Positions 2,232-32,532 of a DNA stretch of 64,000 nucleotides are shown here, in pieces. The notes beneath the pieces are model-generated. The model searched no databases and was not told the origin of the DNA. It was given only the letters and a program-made list of their open reading frames with translations. The translations under genes were made by a program, and so were the position numbers. Numbering within the stretch: position 1 is the first letter of the stretch; each line of letters starts with the position of its first letter. The stretch covers positions 32,001-96,000 of IMG/VR virus record IMGVR_UViG_3300017971_000207; one strand, given 5' to 3'. The DNA is from a virus.

Positions 2232-5200
2232 TCAGAAAACGCCGTCTGAGCCCCAGCCTGAGCCACCACGGCCCCATCCAGGCGAGCCCATACCGCCACC
2301 CAAGATCGGTGGGAGCACGTTCGGCTGCTGCCCGACCGGAAGCTGGGCCGCCGGTGGATAAAAGCGACCACTGTCGACGTGCCGGCCCGATAGACGACGC
2401 GCCGCGGCTGCGTGCTGCTGCTCCTCCATCCAGACGTCGGCCGAGGCCATCGCGCCGCGGAGCACAGGGAGCGGCTGCGTGGCCTGATGCTGCGACAGAG
2501 TGTAGATACAGCCCGCCAGGGCATCGCTCGTATCCTTAGAGCCCTTCTTGGGATGATCGACGCGCTGGCGCTTTGCGTCCAGCTCCAGCTCCCGCAGCTC
2601 TTTGAACACCGTAGGGTAACGATAGATGTTAATCCGATCCTCATAAAAAGCCGTCTTGAGCGCCTCGTACGGGTCCATCTTCGTGTCGACCGAGAGATGC
2701 TCCGCCGCATACCCCTTCTGCTTCAGCTGCTGTAACGCGTCGATCGACTGCCATGTATCCTGAGTAACCAGGGTGATAATGAAACCGTGAGCACTAAGCT
2801 CATAGACGAGGCGCCGCAGGTCGCCGAGCACAATCTCGTCCCCCACTGGAGGGACGATGCGCAGAATAACATCGACAAAGTAGATCGGCTGCCGCTCCTG
2901 GAATACCTCCCCGTCCTCCGCACGGCGCAGTACGTCCTTCCAGCCGCTGATATGAGCCATACAGAAGCCCACCGAATCCTTACGATAGGCAGGGTCGATG
3001 TGGATGTGCCGCGCCGCCTTGGGGTTGACAATCGGCGTCAGGGACTCGTGAGTGTAGCCCGAGAAGTCCCGCATCTGCGTCTTACGTACGAGGTTTTCCC
3101 AGATGAACGTCCCCGGCTTGGAGGGGTCGTATACCTCCACGCTGAAGGGATGCTGCCGCGTGTCGTCAAAGACAAGCTTCTCGCGACGCTGAACAAAGGG
3201 GCTAACTGCAACGGTCGACACCCCCGCGATATCTCTTATGCTGCCTTCAAGGTCACGCTCGAAGTCCGACTTGAAGTCGACGGGGACCGCTACCAACGTG
3301 ACGCCGTCAGGCACCCCGTCCCGCTCCAACCTGCTCTCCTCCCCCTCGTCCAGGATACGCGAGGGTATCTGCTCATTACCGCACAGCACATAGAAGCGCT
3401 CGGGGCTAAAGTGGTCCGCGGGCTTTGAATCCCACAGCGCGTAATCTCGGACCATCACCCGCGGGTCCTCCTTAGCTTCCCGAATGCGCCGCGCCGTGAA
3501 GTCATCCGCGGTCTTCTTTGACGAAACGAGGAAGATCTTCCCGAGCACACGGCCGCCCCGGCCGAAGCGGGATTTCATGCGGCGCTTGAGACCGTTGTAG
3601 ATCATCTCCGCGTGGTCCACAGCCCCCATCCGTGGGTCTATCTTGCGCCCCTTGCTAAGGAAGTTGCTGTTGTGAACGAGCACCCCGTCCCCTATGAAGA
3701 CCTCACATCCTGGGACGCAAATGTCGTAGGTAGGGAGCATTCCCAGCCCTCTCTTGGACACGACGCGGGCCACAGTAAACGCTCGTCCCATACCTCGTAT
3801 ACCCACCCCTGACGAGCGCAATACGCCCGTACCGCTCCCATCTTCGCCTTCTCCTTGGGGTTGGATATGTAGCCTCTGGGCTTCACCTCGACGACCAGCG
3901 TGCGGCCGTCGCTCAGCTCGACCACGTAATCCGGCACAGTGTTGCGTCGCTTGTCCTCCCAAAGGTACGGCACCGACAGCTTCTCGTAACGGTAAGCGGC
4001 TACATCCGAACGCCCCTCCAATATCTCCACCGCTCGAAGCTCCCACAGCGAACGAAAGCCCAGCAAACCCGCCTTCGTCGTCTCGACACGGCCTAGATAC
4101 CTCCAATCTCCCTTCTTCAGGCGCCAGACGCTTGACGCCGATATCTTGGCCCGTGTCTCCTCCGAATGCGTGTAGTCCCGAGTGCGGTTGTATTCGATCA
4201 AACGCCGCTTGAACGCTTCCGTATGCATAGGTTTGCCCCGCCGCGCCTCTGACATTTTGCGTCGCGCCTCCGCCGAGGGGCGCCTCCCAGTCGCAGCCTC
4301 TCGCAACCGCTGCTTGTGCTCCTCTGACAGAGGCTTGCCGTAGTTGGGGTTGTCCTCCCCCACCATTGGCGGCGGTGGTCGCAAGTTGCTGTCTCCAGCG
4401 GCCCAACGCTCCTTCATCGCCCGCGACACTTTGGAACGCGCCTCGTCCGACATCACCTTCCCTCGGTTTCCCTCTCCTATCTTGCGCTTGGTCTCCTCCG
4501 TGTGCTTCCAACCAGTCCTCTTCCTCCGCGCCTCCGCCATCTTGCGCTTTGCTTCCGCCGTATGCTTGCGCCCATGAAACGGGTTCTTTGAGCCCGTCCG
4601 CTGCTTGGCTATCTCCGATAAGCGTCTCTTTTGATCCTCCGAAAGCTTCTGACCTTTCCTCGGCATATGTGACAACCTCCTCACCCGGAAGTATATCACG
4701 CATTAACTTGAAGCCTAGAACCCCGTCACGGCCTAGCACAGCCACCGGATGCCTCCACGACGCGCGCAGACGTTGCCCCCCGTCAAGCTCTACCTCAAAG
4801 CACTCCTGGACCGTCGAACGCTTGATATACGCATCAGCCTCCACTGGGCAGCCCCCCTCTACCGACAGCAACCTAAAGGGCAACCGCAGCGGCCCACAAG
4901 ACTCATAAAGAGCCTCCGCAGTGGCCACCCGACCCCCTGGAAGCGACACCAAGGTATCAGCGCACACGCACTCATCCACTAAGGCCCCGAGGGTGTTCAA
5001 ACCCAATGCGGAGGTGTCCGTGGTGGCCCGAGCTGCCAGCCACACGTTGTTGGGGAACCTGAACTCCTTCCGCGTAGCCTTGTACGGGAAGTGCTCCGCA
5101 AAGTAAGGGCTAGCTTTGAGCTTCGTCGCAATGTTCTCAAAGGCGACCTTCATCGCCAGGCCCTCATTGACGCTCAAGCACACGATCGAGATGTCGGTGT

Positions 5201-5642
5201 CCGGCGCCAGCCCAAGAGAGGCGTGAGGGTCGCGGAGGCAGGATAGCTCGTAGAGCATACGGCAGACTGCTACGGACGCTGAAAAGGTCTTTCCCCCTCC
5301 GATCGCCCCCGTAAAGATGACCTCTTCGTAGTCGCCCCCCTCAAAGAGCTCCTCCATGTCCGAGAGCCATCTGGGATACAGCACGCTGCAGGTGTTGCCG
5401 AGGTAGTAGTCATCCTTGACGAAGGTCGCGATATCCACGGGAGGATGCTTGAACTCGGCCTCGCTCACGATATCGATTAGGGGGCGGTCGCCCTCGCTAC
5501 GCTCCTCCTCGACCTCCGTCAACAGCACCATCAAGGCTGCGCGCTCATCCGGGCTTAGCGCTGCTAGCTCCTGCCGTAGGTCGGCCTCGTCCTCCTCAGC
5601 CGTACGCTTGCTGAAGATCCGACCACCGCGGTTTACGAGCAC
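2232..5642 (-). CDS. terL: Terminase large subunit with one intein (about 702 aa after splicing)
   Basis: Walker A GAIGGGKT, Walker B LVDE|S split by the intein, RNase H-like nuclease motifs HIHIDPA and VDHPKKGSKDTSDALAG. Confidence 0.93.
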   Translation of the reverse strand: MLVNRGGRIFSKRTAEEDEADLRQELAALSPDERAALMVLLTEVEEERSEGDRPLIDIVSEAEFKHPPVDIATFVKDDYYLGNTCSVLYPRWLSDMEELFEGGDYEEVIFTGAIGGGKTFSASVAVCRMLYELSCLRDPHASLGLAPDTDISIVCLSVNEGLAMKVAFENIATKLKASPYFAEHFPYKATRKEFRFPNNVWLAARATTDTSALGLNTLGALVDECVCADTLVSLPGGRVATAEALYESCGPLRLPFRLLSVEGGCPVEADAYIKRSTVQECFEVELDGGQRLRASWRHPVAVLGRDGVLGFKLMRDILPGEEVVTYAEERSEAFGGSKETLIGDSQAADGLKEPVSWAQAYGGSKAQDGGGAEEEDWLEAHGGDQAQDRRGKPREGDVGRGAFQSVAGDEGALGRWRQQLATTAANGGGGQPQLRQASVRGAQAAVARGCDWEAPLGGGATQNVRGAAGQTYAYGSVQAAFDRIQPHSGLHAFGGDTGQDIGVKRLAPEEGRLEVSRPCRDDEGGFAGLSFAVGASSGGDIGGAFGCSRLPLREAVGAVPLGGQATQHCAGLRGRAERRPHAGRRGEAQRLHIQPQGEGEDGSGTGVLRSSGVGIRGMGRAFTVARVVSKRGLGMLPTYDICVPGCEVFIGDGVLVHNSNFLSKGRKIDPRMGAVDHAEMIYNGLKRRMKSRFGRGGRVLGKIFLVSSKKTADDFTARRIREAKEDPRVMVRDYALWDSKPADHFSPERFYVLCGNEQIPSRILDEGEESRLERDGVPDGVTLVAVPVDFKSDFERDLEGSIRDIAGVSTVAVSPFVQRREKLVFDDTRQHPFSVEVYDPSKPGTFIWENLVRKTQMRDFSGYTHESLTPIVNPKAARHIHIDPAYRKDSVGFCMAHISGWKDVLRRAEDGEVFQERQPIYFVDVILRIVPPVGDEIVLGDLRRLVYELSAHGFIITLVTQDTWQSIDALQQLKQKGYAAEHLSVDTKMDPYEALKTAFYEDRINIYRYPTVFKELRELELDAKRQRVDHPKKGSKDTSDALAGCIYTLSQHQATQPLPVLRGAMASADVWMEEQQHAAAARRLSGRHVDSGRFYPPAAQLPVGQQPNVLPPILGGGMGSPGWGRGGSGWGSDGVF
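3669..4970 (-). mobile_element. TerL intein (434 aa), no in-frame endonuclease
   Basis: LVDE|CVCADTLV, ASWRHPV, TYDICVPG...VLVHN|S. The central ~300 aa are low-complexity G/A/R/Q sequence. Confidence 0.93.
3692..4666 (-). CDS. NUMOD3-repeat plus TnsA-like PD-(D/E)XK endonuclease nested in the +1 frame of the TerL intein
   Basis: GAGGAGG SD 9 nt before ATG 4666. Repeats such as KHTAEAKRKMAEA, KHTEETKRKIGE, HSEETRAKIS. Nuclease motifs FRSLWE, PDYVVE, VEVKP. Confidence 0.88.
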   Translation of the reverse strand: MPRKGQKLSEDQKRRLSEIAKQRTGSKNPFHGRKHTAEAKRKMAEARRKRTGWKHTEETKRKIGEGNRGKVMSDEARSKVSRAMKERWAAGDSNLRPPPPMVGEDNPNYGKPLSEEHKQRLREAATGRRPSAEARRKMSEARRGKPMHTEAFKRRLIEYNRTRDYTHSEETRAKISASSVWRLKKGDWRYLGRVETTKAGLLGFRSLWELRAVEILEGRSDVAAYRYEKLSVPYLWEDKRRNTVPDYVVELSDGRTLVVEVKPRGYISNPKEKAKMGAVRAYCARQGWVYEVWDERLLWPASCPREGWECSLPTTFASQDVRSS

Positions 5643-6346
5643 GACGCCTCCGAAGGCTCCGAGTCCACAACCTCGGCCTTGGCCTCAATAACCTCGGGCT
5701 CATCCGCTACACGGGCGAGCTTGCTCGCAAGCCCCAACAGCTTGCGGCGCTTCTCCGGGTTGGCGAGCACCTTAGCTACCTTGGGATCCCCTAGCCGGTC
5801 CTCCACGTGGGCAGTGATGTGGGCCTCGACATCAATCTTCCCCAGCTGCCGCTCATTGAGCCCCAGGTCCATCTTAAGCTGCGCGATGCTTGTCAGGATC
5901 TCGCGGGCCGCCCGTATCTCCTGCGTCATCGACGGGAATAGCTTGTTGATGGTCTTCTCGTTCTCGTACTCAATGCCTATCCGCTCCATCTGGACGGCAT
6001 AAAGCAACCAAAGCTCGTCGAGCTCATCTAGCCCCTCCGCGACACGCAGCGCTGCCTGCTCAAAGCAGAGCGGCATACGCCCCTTGATGAGCTGCGCAGA
6101 GGGAATCGTCGTCCGATAGCGACGCAGCATCGACACCAACCCCTCGCGGCTGGCGTCGGTGTATTCGTGGCGCTCCTCCTGAATGAACTCCGCTATCTTC
6201 CGGTCGCTCCACCCATCAAGGAACAGCTGATGCATCTCATCAAAGCACTTGAGCGCACGGAGCTTCGGGAAGTTGGTAGCGCGCCTGGTCGGCTTAATCT
6301 GAAAAGCCGCTGGCCGACGCTTGCGGCCGTTCTTCTTAGCAGTCAC
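5633..6346 (-). CDS. Putative terminase small subunit
   Basis: Overlaps the terL start; HTH-like GWSDRKIAEFI followed by helical region. Called mainly from position. Confidence 0.6.
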   Translation of the reverse strand: MTAKKNGRKRRPAAFQIKPTRRATNFPKLRALKCFDEMHQLFLDGWSDRKIAEFIQEERHEYTDASREGLVSMLRRYRTTIPSAQLIKGRMPLCFEQAALRVAEGLDELDELWLLYAVQMERIGIEYENEKTINKLFPSMTQEIRAAREILTSIAQLKMDLGLNERQLGKIDVEAHITAHVEDRLGDPKVAKVLANPEKRRKLLGLASKLARVADEPEVIEAKAEVVDSEPSEASCS

Positions 6347-6400
6347 GCCTCCAGCTTATCACGTTCAAACGCGATAGCCTAACCGCGCGAGATCGTTAGG

Positions 6401-6429
6401 TGCCTCGGGCGGGAGTCGAACCCACACCC
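6401..6429 (-). pseudogene. Orphan 3' half of a tRNA (T arm plus acceptor strand CCGAGGC-A)
   Basis: GTGGG TTCGACT CCCGC CCGAGGC A; acceptor strand is exactly complementary to GCCTCGG at 7026..7020. Confidence 0.8.
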
Positions 6430-6439
6430 GACCAATCAG

Positions 6440-6524
6440 TGCCCAAGCTGGGAATCGAACCCAGACGCCTCTACGAGACAACGGGTTTTAAACCCGTCCC
6501 GACTACCAATTACGGCACTTGGGC
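6440..6524 (-). tRNA. tRNA-Leu(TAA), long variable arm
   Basis: Acceptor GCCCAAG/CTTGGGC, anticodon arm ACGGG TTTAAAA CCCGT, T arm CTGGG TTCGATT CCCAG. Confidence 0.92.
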
Positions 6525-6953
6525 TAGAAACTGCGCGCGAGGACGAGCCCCGCAAGAATAAACCTGCCTTCTCCTACTCCACTTACCAGAGCAAGACTTG
6601 CTACAAAATGGCCCCGCCTTACCCTGCTTCCTATTCGAGCGGACCACACGTGCCGGTTTAGTTCCTTGTCCCCCACACTCAGGACAAGCAAAAACCACAA
6701 GCTCCTCGGACCTCGCATGCTCTCGCGCGTGGTCCCCACGAGAGATAACCTCCAGATTACCCAACGCATTGTTGGCTCTGTTTCCATCCCTGTGATGAAC
6801 ACACTCCCAACTCTCCAGCTTACGGCCCAGATGCGCCTCCATAACCTCCCGATGCTCTAGAACACTACGCTTAGTACCATCCGACAATCTCTCGACCCTC
6901 ATTCGGTACCCCTTCATGTTATACCAACCAGACCTCCACGCAACTTCAACCAT
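6510..6953 (-). CDS. Free-standing HNH endonuclease with C-terminal Cys (Zn-binding) region; start may be ATG 6917
   Basis: EHREVMEAHLGRKL...VHHRDGNRANNALGNL...H; CPEC and FCSKSC motifs. Confidence 0.9.
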   Translation of the reverse strand: MVEVAWRSGWYNMKGYRMRVERLSDGTKRSVLEHREVMEAHLGRKLESWECVHHRDGNRANNALGNLEVISRGDHAREHARSEELVVFACPECGGQGTKPARVVRSNRKQGKAGPFCSKSCSGKWSRRRQVYSCGARPRAQFLAQVP

Positions 6954-6991
6954 AACGATGGTTTAACACTGTCTCTACCCACAGACCACTA

Positions 6992-7026
6992 GAACCTGCC
7001 GCCTCTACCAGCTGGGCTACCGAGGC
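6992..7026 (-). pseudogene. Orphan 5' half of a tRNA (acceptor strand, D arm, 5' anticodon stem)
   Basis: GCCTCGG TA GCCCAGCTGGTAGAGGC G GCAGG TTC; same D-arm pattern as the neighbouring Leu tRNAs; no complementary CCTGC downstream. Confidence 0.8.
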
Positions 7027-7033
7027 TCACAGG

Positions 7034-7108
7034 TGCCCGAGAGAGGATTCGAACCTCCAACCTCGTCGTCCTAAGCGACGCGCCTCTACCTGGTTGGGCT
7101 ACTCGGGC
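7034..7108 (-). tRNA. tRNA-Leu(TAG), short variable loop
   Basis: Acceptor GCCCGAG/CTCGGGC, anticodon arm CGTCG CTTAGGA CGACG, GGTTCGAATCC T loop. Confidence 0.92.
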
Positions 7109-7111
7109 TAG

Positions 7112-7186
7112 TGGTCAGAGGGGGATTCGAACCCCCAACCTTCGGCCCCTCAAGCCGACGCCTCTGCCTAGTTGGGCTACCTGACC
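7112..7186 (-). tRNA. tRNA-Leu(GAG), short variable loop
   Basis: Acceptor GGTCAGG/TCTGACC, anticodon arm TCGGC TTGAGGG GCCGA, T arm GGGGG TTCGAAT CCCCC. Confidence 0.92.
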
Positions 7187-7300
7187 GATACACATGTCTG
7201 CGCCCGTCCACCACCTCCCGGCGGGACGGGCCGTCAAAGCAACAGGTGTAGTCGGCGAGACATCACCGCCTAGACTGCCACAGAAGCCCATCTATGACAA

Positions 7301-7540
7301 CTACTCAGGAACGACCACGTGGTCGCCGCCCCCAACCTCTGGGAAGTACGCTTCATAGCCAGTCGGAGTAGGTGCAGATCTAACCACGTAAGGCATCCCA
7401 CAGCCACCGCAATGAGACAGCTCGCGCGTCTGCCCACAGCCAGGCACCGCCACACGCCCTCGGCAATGAGGACAGTAGATGTCGATCTTAGCACAGCAGC
7501 CCATCCGCTCAACCGCCAGCACCTCGACAACCCGGCCCAT
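7301..7540 (-). CDS. Small Zn-ribbon protein
   Basis: CPHC...CGGC; abuts the upstream ORF. Confidence 0.65.
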   Translation of the reverse strand: MGRVVEVLAVERMGCCAKIDIYCPHCRGRVAVPGCGQTRELSHCGGCGMPYVVRSAPTPTGYEAYFPEVGGGDHVVVPE

Positions 7541-7747
7541 CTAACCGTCCTCCAGATCACGACGCCGCCCATCATCCAGCTTGCGGGCCTCCGCAAGGAG
7601 AAAGCGCTTGCGGTCCTCCTTGCTCATGCTCCGGGTCAGACCAAACAGGTCCGTCACCACCCCCAAGCACCACTGATAGCTCGGCTTGCCCGGCAGGTTG
7701 CGCTGCACATGCCTGGCGTACGCCTTCAAAGGATGACCCTTACTCAT
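7541..7747 (-). CDS. Hypothetical protein
   Basis: GGAGGT SD; tight gene packing. Confidence 0.65.
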   Translation of the reverse strand: MSKGHPLKAYARHVQRNLPGKPSYQWCLGVVTDLFGLTRSMSKEDRKRFLLAEARKLDDGRRRDLEDG

Positions 7748-30220: not shown

Positions 30221-32532
30221 AGCCCGTCGTCCTGTAGCAGTACATGCATGACAGCGTCGCGAACTCGCGCACCAAGCTCAACATCCGTCTCCAGCGCCGC
30301 CTGCAGTGCCTTCTTTGAGCCGAACTTCTGATCGAGCACCTGCCACGAGGAACCACGGCCCTTCACTAGACCCACCATCTCCCCCATGCTCACAATCTCG
30401 GGAACATCTATCGAGTCCCCCACCCGGTACCTCTCTGTATCCATCAACGCAAGCTGAAACTCGCCCTCAATGCGAGGGTAGAAGGATTTGTTTTTCTCCA
30501 CCCGGAAGGCAAACTTCCCCGCTAATGGGCGCCCGAGAACCTCGTCCATCTCGTAGCCCGCCGAGCGTAGCTTCGTCTCTGTAACCGCCGCAAAGCCTGG
30601 GGCTAGGCCCCCCGGCTGGATCTCCGGACTATTATGGACGACCACACCACGCCCGTCGCCGCCAACAAGGTAGAAGCAGTCCCCCTCTATCTGGAGGTCG
30701 TACTTGACGCGAGACCTGTGTTTCTTCTGAGACTTTCGAACGCTGTGAACCTCCACAGGTATCGGTCGGCGGCGCATCACCGACTCCGGCAGCTCTAGCT
30801 CACCCGTGGCCTGCTCCCGATGCTCCGGCAGAAGCTTGTAAGCCATATCCGGAGGGAGATAGCGAGCGACGGCCTCCGAGAACTGCGTGAATGTGCTAGC
30901 GGGAAACACTATCGCACGTTGAGTTTGACGATAGCGCGTGCCAGGGAAGCGCTCGGCGAGCACCGCGGCCACGCGCACGGCGTGATCGTCTCGAAGGCGT
31001 TTGACCGAGATAGACGCCGACCGATGCGATTCCCGATAGGTGCCGTCGTCCGCATACCAGACAGCAAGGGTTAGGGGGCCAGCTTCGCGCAGAACATCCA
31101 GAGGGATGGTCCGATAGTCCTTGCCCTCCAACGTGTCGCCTGTCCCATAGAATTGCGCCCGTAGCTGCCGAAGCTCAAAGCTGTTCTCTGTCTTCCACGT
31201 GTCGCGCCCGCACGCGCTCACGAGGCTGAAGCCATAAGATCGAATGAGACGCTTCTTCCAGCACAGGTAAGCCTTCTGCTCCCCATTTGTTAGGCAAAAA
31301 GACCCCCATCGCGTGATGTGACCGTCTCCCAATAGCGAGCCTAAGACAACCTCACGCTCCACACTCGTGAGGCGCTCCTCGTACCAAGACAAGAGCTTCA
31401 TGCCTGGGCGCACTCGCCCAGCACGAATCTCGTTGCCGTCCCCATCGACGAGCAAGTGGTTCGGGGTACAGGTGAAGCCCTGAGCACCGCGCCGGCCTCC
31501 GGCCCCTGCCACACGGAACGTCAGCCAACTCTCACCCGGCGCCAAGACGCCGTTCTGATACCAGTTGACGATCCTACGCGCGACAATACGCCCGCGGTCT
31601 TTATCCCAGGAGAGCACCGGACCCTCCATACGCTCCTTAACCACCCGGTGGATGGGCACCTGCGACCCGTCCGCGAACATCACAGGCGTCTTCGCGTGAA
31701 AGCACCCAAACATCACTCCCACCTGCATACGCACCTGGTTGGTGAACAGCAAGGTAGGGGCAACACCTCGGGCGTTCGCAACCGTATTTAAGGCCACGAT
31801 AAACTTCCGTATCCCCTTGCCCAGCTGCCTCGCCTGCACCGCAGGGTTGTCGTCCATCGTGGAGCCTACAATCTCCTTCGCCGGCGCAAGAAACGCAATA
31901 CTGTCAATAACCACAATATCGAAGCCCTTCCGCAATAGAGCCTCGGTCATATCCATCGACTGCTCCTGATACTCCGGCGCAGATACGAATAGGTTGTCCA
32001 GGTCCACCCCCAAACGCTGCGCCCACCGGCGGTCCAGAGTCCCCTCGACATCCATGAACAGGATCATAGGAGGCCGATAACCCTTGCACCTACAGGGTGA
32101 GAAGTTCCAACAGTTGGCGCACATCCTCTGAGCATTCGCAAGGGCCTTCAGATAGGTGGTTGTCTTCGAGCTGGACTTCTTCCCCCACACCACGCTCACC
32201 TTCCCCACCGGGAAGCCCCCACCTAGCGCGTAATCGAGCTTGAATATACCTGTCGGTATCCGCGGCACCTTGCCAGAGCCTAGGTCCGAGGCGCGCTGAA
32301 AGATCGCATCGCCGTGGACCTTCCGTATCTGCGCCACCGTGGCGCTTGCCAGCATGTGCTCGGGAGAGTCCGACAGCTCCACGACGGCGCAGGAGTCCTT
32401 GACCGTTTTGGACCCCTTCTTAGCCTTGGCCTTCGTCGGCTTGTCCTTCCTGTCCTTATCCTTCTTCGATGTCGTCTTCTTCGAGGCGCTCTTCGCCGCC
32501 TTGGGCTTCTCCGCCTGCTGTGCTGCCGCCAT
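30217..32532 (-). CDS. recA: RecA recombinase with intein (about 413 aa after splicing)
   Basis: IPTGIFKLDYALGGG, GKKSSSKTT, VVIDSIA, NQVRMQVGVMFG|SPE, VEKNK. Confidence 0.93.
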   Translation of the reverse strand: MAAAQQAEKPKAAKSASKKTTSKKDKDRKDKPTKAKAKKGSKTVKDSCAVVELSDSPEHMLASATVAQIRKVHGDAIFQRASDLGSGKVPRIPTGIFKLDYALGGGFPVGKVSVVWGKKSSSKTTTYLKALANAQRMCANCWNFSPCRCKGYRPPMILFMDVEGTLDRRWAQRLGVDLDNLFVSAPEYQEQSMDMTEALLRKGFDIVVIDSIAFLAPAKEIVGSTMDDNPAVQARQLGKGIRKFIVALNTVANARGVAPTLLFTNQVRMQVGVMFGCFHAKTPVMFADGSQVPIHRVVKERMEGPVLSWDKDRGRIVARRIVNWYQNGVLAPGESWLTFRVAGAGGRRGAQGFTCTPNHLLVDGDGNEIRAGRVRPGMKLLSWYEERLTSVEREVVLGSLLGDGHITRWGSFCLTNGEQKAYLCWKKRLIRSYGFSLVSACGRDTWKTENSFELRQLRAQFYGTGDTLEGKDYRTIPLDVLREAGPLTLAVWYADDGTYRESHRSASISVKRLRDDHAVRVAAVLAERFPGTRYRQTQRAIVFPASTFTQFSEAVARYLPPDMAYKLLPEHREQATGELELPESVMRRRPIPVEVHSVRKSQKKHRSRVKYDLQIEGDCFYLVGGDGRGVVVHNSPEIQPGGLAPGFAAVTETKLRSAGYEMDEVLGRPLAGKFAFRVEKNKSFYPRIEGEFQLALMDTERYRVGDSIDVPEIVSMGEMVGLVKGRGSSWQVLDQKFGSKKALQAALETDVELGARVRDAVMHVLLQDDGL
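30631..31704 (-). mobile_element. RecA intein (358 aa), LAGLIDADG
   Basis: MFG|CFHAKTPV...GSLLGDG...WYADDG...VVHN|S. Confidence 0.93.

Follow-up and report, generated by a model that had tools for sequence, protein, structure and literature searches.

A tRNA-Leu gene broken near its anticodon around an HNH endonuclease gene and a second tRNA-Leu in a virus: a likely footprint of disruptive homing

Homing endonucleases normally spare their hosts by residing in self-splicing introns, in inteins or at intergenic sites. The group I intron in the anticodon loop of tRNA-Leu(UAA), between U34 and A35, is classically cyanobacterial and plastid; in synthetic cleave-and-rescue drives, a nuclease destroys a useful gene and a carried, cleavage-resistant version rescues the function. 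SegB of phage T4 is a free-standing GIY-YIG homing endonuclease encoded in the phage tRNA cluster, which recognises tRNA gene DNA through a T-arm motif, drives preferential inheritance of itself together with the neighbouring tRNA genes and eliminates the tRNA markers of a rival phage (PMC2330249); its homologs are statistically associated with tRNAs and show no tRNA isotype preference (PMC13096335). The T-even enzymes mobE and I-TevIII are examples of free-standing and intron-encoded homing endonucleases whose nuclease genes move with flanking DNA by break repair (PMC2790892). According to PMC5966550, which cites Pope et al. 2014, HNH genes are the most widespread coding sequences in the tRNA arrays of mycobacteriophages and Mycobacterium and are implicated in tRNA repertoire diversity. 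Here we describe a locus in positions 32,001 to 96,000 of the IMG/VR virus record IMGVR_UViG_3300017971_000207, a single contig of 145 kb, in which an HNH gene and an intact tRNA-Leu(UAA) gene lie between two pieces of another tRNA-Leu gene. This stretch of 64,000 nucleotides (nt) is called the window; all coordinates are those of the window and every feature is on its minus strand.

We consider it likely that the locus is the footprint of a mobile two-gene cassette, a free-standing HNH gene with a long-arm tRNA-Leu(UAA), which invaded a resident type I tRNA-Leu gene in the anticodon loop after nucleotide 34, a form of disruptive homing with a spare tRNA. Read along the minus strand, the locus opens with two intact short-arm (type I) genes, tRNA-Leu(GAG) at 7186..7111, a sister of the broken gene, and tRNA-Leu(UAG) at 7108..7032, the two leucine neighbours already named in the first-pass annotation; both are called by ARAGORN and score 55.8 and 59.5 bits with Rfam and 93 and 90.4 bits with R1, a covariance model made from seven sister short-arm tRNAs. 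The 5′ piece of the broken type I tRNA-Leu (35 nt, 7026..6992) follows, then the HNH_3 homing-endonuclease gene (open reading frame (ORF) at 6953..6510), an intact long-arm (type II) tRNA-Leu(UAA) of 86 nt at 6524..6439 with a full cloverleaf and A73 (ARAGORN; Rfam 57 bits), which would be the incoming spare, a 9-nt spacer TGATTGGTC (6438..6430) that leads into a repeat (together 6438..6420), and the 3′ piece of the broken tRNA (29 nt, 6429..6401). Beyond it lie a conserved gene for a 237-amino-acid protein (6346..5633), which served as the anchor for finding orthologous loci, and the large terminase gene. The gap between the two pieces, estimated earlier at about 560 nt, is 562 nt and holds the HNH gene and the tRNA-Leu(UAA), the first 15 nt of which do lie within the end of the HNH ORF. 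ARAGORN finds three intact tRNAs in the whole genome (GAG, UAG and UAA), and the tRNAs carried by the phage are all leucine tRNAs.

The 5′ piece reads GCCTCGG-TA-GCC-CAGCTGGTAGA-GGC-G-GCAGG-TT-C and comprises the acceptor 5′ strand, a complete D-arm carrying the family motif GTAGCCCAGCTGGTAGAGGC, the anticodon-stem 5′ strand GCAGG, and the loop nucleotides UU and C34. The 3′ piece consists of the T-stem strand GTGGG (6425..6421), the T-loop TTCGACT, CCCGC, the acceptor strand CCGAGGC (6408..6402) and A73 (6401). The perfect complementarity claimed for the two 7-nt acceptor strands holds (7/7; chance for a given pair about 6e-5), and both pieces are matched by R1, the 5′ piece with 16.2 bits (7026..6969, E 5e-4) and the 3′ piece with 15.0 bits (6429..6409, E 1e-3), while a search of 4 kb around the locus gave no comparable match beyond them; the 5′ piece is matched as well by a hidden Markov model (HMM) of tRNA-Leu 5′ halves. 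The first-pass annotation described the gene as split at the anticodon; this stands insofar as the 5′ piece ends at C34, but the cut is not clean, and the anticodon-stem 3′ strand (approximately positions 35-44, about 10 nt) is missing.

Two imperfect direct repeats are found at the junctions. The first, GCAG(G/T)TTCTAG, has its left copy GCAGGTTCTAG at the end of the 5′ piece (6999..6989) and its right copy GCAGTTTCTAG at 6534..6524 (10/11 identical), where it forms the leader of the tRNA-Leu(UAA), its final G being tRNA position 1. The second resembles a variable loop and T-stem: by direct reading, TGGTCTGTGGGT at 6988..6977 recurs with a 3-nt indel as TGGTCGGGTGTGGGT at 6434..6420, and the TGGTCTGTGGGT segment is similar to AGGTT-GCGGG-T of the orthologous tRNA in L013, the closest relative (see below). 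Repeats of 10-11 nt and of similar quality arise by chance in other loci; for the 11-nt repeat of the window only the position is suggestive, and target-site duplication as a general trait of the HNH cassette is unsupported.

The leucine identity of the broken gene was assessed from its D-arm. The Leu-type motif GTAGCCCARYYRGGYAGAGGC, with a 3-bp stem, was scanned over 185,579 prokaryote genomes and gave 53 loci (L048-L100), 43 of them with a tRNA called by ARAGORN. All 43 tRNAs have a leucine anticodon (15 TAA, 12 CAG, 10 TAG, 4 GAG and 2 CAA), are short-arm and measure 75-79 nt; many lie within tRNA arrays and many belong to Actinomycetota. On these sequences the motif appears to define a widespread type I tRNA-Leu family. 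A type I tRNA-Leu(CAA) of Streptomyces coelicolor is leucylated by the leucyl-tRNA synthetase (LeuRS) of that organism (PMC6614811). In Kutzneria, Streptomyces and Saccharothrix the motif-bearing tRNAs are encoded singly, and in Chloroflexota, Acidobacteriota and others they lie in large tRNA arrays. From the anticodon of the broken tRNA only C34 survives, and the positional ortholog in L013 has a CAA anticodon, with three mismatches in its acceptor stem. Because C34 is retained and the L013 ortholog carries CAA, tRNA-Leu(CAA) is the most probable identity of the lost gene; the earlier proposal of Leu(CAA) or Leu(CAG) is thus supported by both the leucine-only D-arm motif (43/43) and the CAA of L013.

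The HNH protein matches PF13392 (HNH_3) with 35.5 bits against a cutoff of 24.8 over residues 34-77 and has a zinc motif, CxxC...QGKAGPFC..C, at its C-terminus. Its likely start is at 6917 (MKGY...) or 6902, and its stop codon falls within the downstream tRNA. The window protein has the residues of all 11 columns that are invariant in an 18-sequence alignment (A2), among them H42, N54, C78, C81, C105 and C109; a search of solved structures with the protein returned zinc-finger noise only. Homologs with 32-50% identity in viral contigs adjoin tRNAs. Distinct loci in which a tRNA starts between 50 nt before and 12 nt after the HNH stop number 13, the window and Salmonella phage PVP-SE1 among them; they are not phylogenetically independent. 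The linkage seen directly in these loci is with tRNA-Leu in 12 of 13 (eight TAA, three CAA and one GAG), the remaining one being tRNA-Ala, against a background in which leucine makes up 24% of all tRNAs in these loci. Some of the HNH-tRNA pairs stand outside any tRNA array, and these cases show that the HNH gene and its tRNA-Leu are inherited as a unit. The HNH stop codon lies inside the adjoining tRNA in nine of the 13 distinct loci (window 6510-6524, L046:1583-1620, L035, L036, L042, L043, L045, L029 and L030), the two genes overlapping by 10-50 nt. Cleavage by RNase P at the 5′ end of the tRNA would deprive the HNH message of its stop codon, which could confine expression of the nuclease to transcripts that are still unprocessed.

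Broken tRNA-Leu genes also recur beside this nuclease. An HMM of 104 tRNA-Leu 5′ halves was run over 20 HNH loci (about 60 kb) with a threshold of E < 0.2, and all five orphan 5′ fragments detected on the strand of the HNH gene lie directly at its N-terminus (the window, L037, PVP-SE1, L029 and L043); a similar upstream fragment is visible by eye in L035 and L045. The fragment does not belong to the same gene as the intact tRNA downstream, and the two often differ in structural class, in either direction. Exact-match scans of viral contigs for the 5′ piece and for the 3′ end of the Leu(UAA) gene gave no match, and a DNA search of cultured phages with the locus returned one unrelated tRNA match only.

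Relatives of the HNH gene are found within or beside self-splicing introns at the nucleotide where the window tRNA is broken. In L037 (the same as L008; IMGVR_UViG_3300040801_003999), a type I tRNA-Leu(UAA) at 1377-2140 is interrupted by a group I intron that encodes an HNH protein: the 5′ exon (1377-1411) is followed by an HNH ORF 40% identical to that of the window, a group I core (RF00028, 42 bits, E 7.5e-8, slightly below the gathering score) and the 3′ exon from 2099. The joined exons give the canonical loop CUUAAAA, placing the intron between U34 and A35, and the 5′ piece of the window ends at nucleotide 34, matching this position. In the L037 HNH ORF, no start codon of the ATG, GTG or TTG type precedes the conserved GPY motif. 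In L026 (IMGVR_UViG_3300008267_000013, 780-1410), two consecutive tRNA(UAA) genes, the second a long-arm tRNA-Leu and neither called by ARAGORN, each contain a group I intron at this site (814-1023 and 1140-1341); a free-standing HNH gene of the window lineage comes after these intron-bearing tRNAs, and then an odd tRNA-Arg(UCU)-like gene. The introns in L037 and L026 and the end of the window 5′ piece at nucleotide 34 link the HNH lineage to one site in tRNA-Leu genes, in the anticodon loop; the window has its intron-less, destructive form.

Such a relative in a genuine group I intron raises the question of whether the interrupted tRNA of the window is still functional, either by removal of the 562-nt insert as an intron or by trans-joining of the halves as in archaeal split tRNAs, with the tRNA-Leu(UAA) released as a by-product. 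The acceptor strands are still perfectly complementary and the D-arm and T-arm are intact, as this would require, but the other evidence makes it very improbable. A search for RF00028 in 6000..7600 at E up to 10, the approach that does detect the cores in L026 and L037, gave no match, nor is there room for a group I core. ARAGORN, allowing introns up to 3000 nt, found no interrupted tRNA at the locus and made only spurious low-threshold calls. The anticodon-stem 3′ strand is absent, and three joins of the two pieces, one of which used slightly wrong coordinates, yielded no cloverleaf anticodon arm when folded. Pairing between the flanks, at -20.7 kcal/mol, is no better than that of shuffled sequences (mean -23.2; 75% of shuffles as good or better). 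The orthologous 3′ remnant in two further relatives, L022 and L020, has moreover decayed, with T54C, a C50:A64 mismatch and a changed acceptor (9.4 bits versus 15.0 in the window). In view of the missing group I core, the missing ARAGORN call, the absent anticodon-stem strand and the unpaired flanks, the interrupted tRNA is best regarded as a dead gene, neither spliced nor split and joined; as the window has no ribozyme, splicing could not restore it.

The tRNA-like duplicated ends might also be taken for the attachment-site scars of an integrase-mediated element targeting tRNA genes. Integrative elements often target such genes at the anticodon or the T-loop (e.g. PMC3706429), and the insert is flanked by short direct repeats spanning the variable loop and T-stem. 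We reject this explanation as having next to no likelihood because the insert, made up of the HNH gene and a tRNA only, has no gene for an integrase; integrations of this kind normally restore the tRNA that they enter, whereas here the target is destroyed.

A pair of alleles in cultured phages parallels the architecture of the window. In the Salmonella phages PVP-SE1 and SSE121, an HNH homolog overlaps a long-arm tRNA-Leu(UAA) by 38 nt, while the related phage SPLA5a has no HNH gene and an intact short-arm tRNA-Leu(UAA) at the corresponding place (L101:771-848). BLAST comparison showed that a 549-nt segment of PVP-SE1, consisting of the HNH gene and the type II tRNA-Leu(UAA), stands in place of 54 nt of SPLA5a, with flanks 99-100% identical. 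In SPLA5a these 54 nt comprise the 3′ two-thirds of its type I tRNA-Leu(UAA) and the spacer behind it; of the type I tRNA, PVP-SE1 retains the first 29 nt, directly before the HNH ATG. For the EspYZU phages, GAP31 and 4MG (Cronobacter/Escherichia), query coverage is roughly halved, consistent with the HNH-less form, which was checked directly on SPLA5a only; across this HNH-less set, SPLA5a included, the flanks are 86-100% identical. To judge from these alignments, the PVP-SE1 locus has the architecture of the window in a tractable system, and the layout in which one tRNA is broken and a spare is brought appears to recur in unrelated phages, including cultured Salmonella phages. The PVP-SE1 HNH gene (L046:1126-1620, 164 amino acids) lies within a tRNA cluster and is unannotated in GU070616, while it is annotated in SSE121 and other relatives. 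ARAGORN further reports in SPLA5a (L101:394-469) a tRNA with a four-base anticodon (AGAT) and an 8-nt anticodon loop, where PVP-SE1 has a normal tRNA-Ile(GAT).

Orthologous loci of the window itself were found via the adjacent 237-amino-acid protein and, for L022, via an exact 32-mer of the Leu(UAA) gene. L013, with 78% amino acid identity in the adjacent gene, provides the uninterrupted locus: one contiguous short-arm tRNA(CAA) of 74-76 nt lies directly upstream of the orthologous gene, without HNH gene or Leu(UAA). Its 3′ end is about 22/25 identical (by reading) to the 3′ piece of the window, and the downstream spacer motif GCGGTTAGGCYATCGCG is common to both. The next relative (73% identity) is represented by L020 and by the more complete L022, where short-arm tRNAs GAG, CAA, CAG and UAG are followed by a 22-nt spacer, Leu(UAA), the same spacer as in the window and the decayed 3′ piece. 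The HNH gene is thus polymorphic at one and the same site, being present in the window and absent from L013 and L022. From the spacer through GGGTG, the window and L022/L020 have the same sequence, and the leader AGTTTCYAG of Leu(UAA) is conserved in L022. The Leu(UAA) genes of the window and L022 are identical in 85 of 86 positions (98.8%), against 69.5% for the GAG tRNA, 78.2% for the TAG tRNA and 74.4% for the adjacent gene, a difference that points to a recent lateral exchange of the Leu(UAA) segment. More distant relatives (L001-L003, L014-L019 and L021) have no tRNA at this position and are therefore uninformative. Between the GAG and CAA tRNAs of L022 (2310-2396, minus strand) there is in addition a long-arm, Tyr-like tRNA-like sequence with a ..CU-GUA-AA.. 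loop, which scores 6.5 bits with R1 and is not called by ARAGORN.

Several observations weigh against invasion by an HNH-tRNA cassette. The L013 tRNA(CAA) (L013:125-200) has three unpaired acceptor positions (5′ GCTCGCG versus 3′ CCGAGGT), so it may be defective, decaying or mis-assembled in a short, possibly low-coverage contig. In other loci the break falls anywhere between about position 25 and position 34, without a single fixed site, and we know of no member of the HNH lineage with a known cleavage specificity. The repeat of the variable loop and T-stem and the loss of about 10 nt of the tRNA indicate that the original event in the window was not a clean insertion; it involved a deletion or rearrangement, and simple joins of the pieces give no anticodon stem. 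The first-pass annotation expected that relatives without the HNH gene would not have the halves apart, yet L022 lacks the gene and keeps Leu(UAA) between remnants, although its putative 5′ remnant is marginal (shuffle p about 0.045) and aligns nearly as well to other tRNA 5′ halves. The pieces can thus stay separate without the HNH gene, which may have come in on its own, and the HNH segment has its own flanking 11-nt repeat. Nor does L022 strictly need compensation, since it has CAA and CAG tRNAs elsewhere that are intact.

A history in two steps would accommodate part of this, with tRNA-Leu(UAA) alone first placed in the resident tRNA by illegitimate recombination in the array, and the HNH gene inserted later just upstream with duplication of 11 nt, the tRNA never having been split by HNH. 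Consistent with such a course, L022 has Leu(UAA) and a 3′ remnant with no HNH gene, the GCAG(G/T)TTCTAG repeats bound the HNH segment, and the high identity between the window and L022 starts only 9 nt upstream of Leu(UAA). We nevertheless judge it unlikely: 11-nt repeats with one mismatch occur at a similar rate by chance in other loci, the HNH gene and tRNA enter as a single block in PVP-SE1 compared with SPLA5a, the nuclease is linked to tRNA-Leu in 12 of the 13 adjacent cases, and the break falls at the same 34|35 position as in the intron-borne relative. Loss of the nuclease gene after invasion, moreover, is the expected fate of homing genes. We read the HNH-less state of L022 as such a later loss, and the 11-nt repeat bracketing the HNH segment could mediate its deletion.

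Under the cassette reading, we propose the following course of events. The HNH enzyme would recognise the DNA of tRNA-Leu genes in the region of the D-arm and anticodon loop and cut alleles without the cassette. Repair from a cassette-bearing genome would then copy in the HNH gene with its linked tRNA-Leu, as the cultured allele pair suggests; the linked tRNA is presumably not cut, because it differs in sequence and structural class. The target is left as a dead 5′ piece and, in the window, a dead 3′ piece, which is what is seen at the locus. The carried tRNA-Leu(UAA) would read UUA and, by wobble, UUG, which would make the loss of tRNA-Leu(CAA) cheap and allow an element that destroys a gene to persist. 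In the sister lineage L022, the HNH gene would later have been lost, and relatives of the nuclease would reach the same harmlessness by another way, a self-splicing group I intron at 34|35 of a tRNA-Leu(UAA) gene. Leucine codon use over the whole genome is CTG 32%, CTC 23%, CTT 16%, TTG 12.7%, CTA 12% and TTA 4%, and coverage of the lost CAA tRNA by a UAA-anticodon tRNA reading UUG is plausible.

With less confidence, a little short of even, we extend this to the lineage as a whole: the HNH lineage may be specialised on tRNA-Leu genes and spread as a natural cleave-and-rescue element that destroys a resident tRNA-Leu gene close to its anticodon and supplies a tRNA-Leu immune to cleavage, in many cases one of the opposite structural class, while sister elements use a self-splicing intron at the same nucleotide. 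If so, the nuclease would drive both the turnover of tRNA-Leu and the spread of its unusual short-arm form in phages and bacteria.

Two further features of the phage were observed. The large terminase ORF (1136 amino acids, 2232-5642, minus strand) contains a long internal insert resembling an intein, and among 121 long ORFs the stop codons are TAG in 57, TGA in 48 and TAA in 16.

The nearest precedent for the locus is SegB, likewise a free-standing nuclease gene embedded among phage tRNA genes. SegB is a GIY-YIG enzyme, whereas that of the window belongs to HNH_3 and has a zinc motif; SegB shows no isotype preference, whereas the window lineage is almost always followed by tRNA-Leu; and there is no description of SegB leaving a broken target tRNA beside a replacement isoacceptor. 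The mycobacterial tRNA arrays resemble the locus in having HNH endonuclease genes inside them, but the associations given in the text consulted are general, with no target isotype, broken-target footprint or linked replacement tRNA described there. A limited literature search likewise gave no description of an isotype-specific HNH-tRNA pair that leaves a broken isoacceptor, or of the kinship of such a pair with intron-borne enzymes at the same tRNA position.

The group I introns of tRNA-Leu(UAA) share with the window the site between nucleotides 34 and 35, and relatives of the HNH gene are inside (L037) or beside (L026) such introns; the window differs in having no ribozyme and in carrying a complete second tRNA-Leu where L037 has the ribozyme core. 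As with mobE and I-TevIII, a single nuclease lineage occurs both intron-borne and free-standing beside its target, but the protein-coding targets of those enzymes stay intact, whereas that of the window is destroyed and would be functionally substituted. The homing endonuclease of the window seems to destroy the tRNA gene into which it inserts and to make up for the loss by bringing another tRNA with the same amino acid specificity. Confirmation of this would add a third way of being harmless to those described for such enzymes, and would offer a concrete mechanism for turnover of the phage tRNA repertoire and for the mutual replacement of leucine tRNAs of type I and type II. The cassette would then also be the natural equivalent of the engineered cleave-and-rescue drives, with which it shares the logic of destroying a gene and carrying its replacement; those drives are engineered, Cas9-based and used in animals, whereas the cassette is natural and found in phages, its rescue and resistance being putative.

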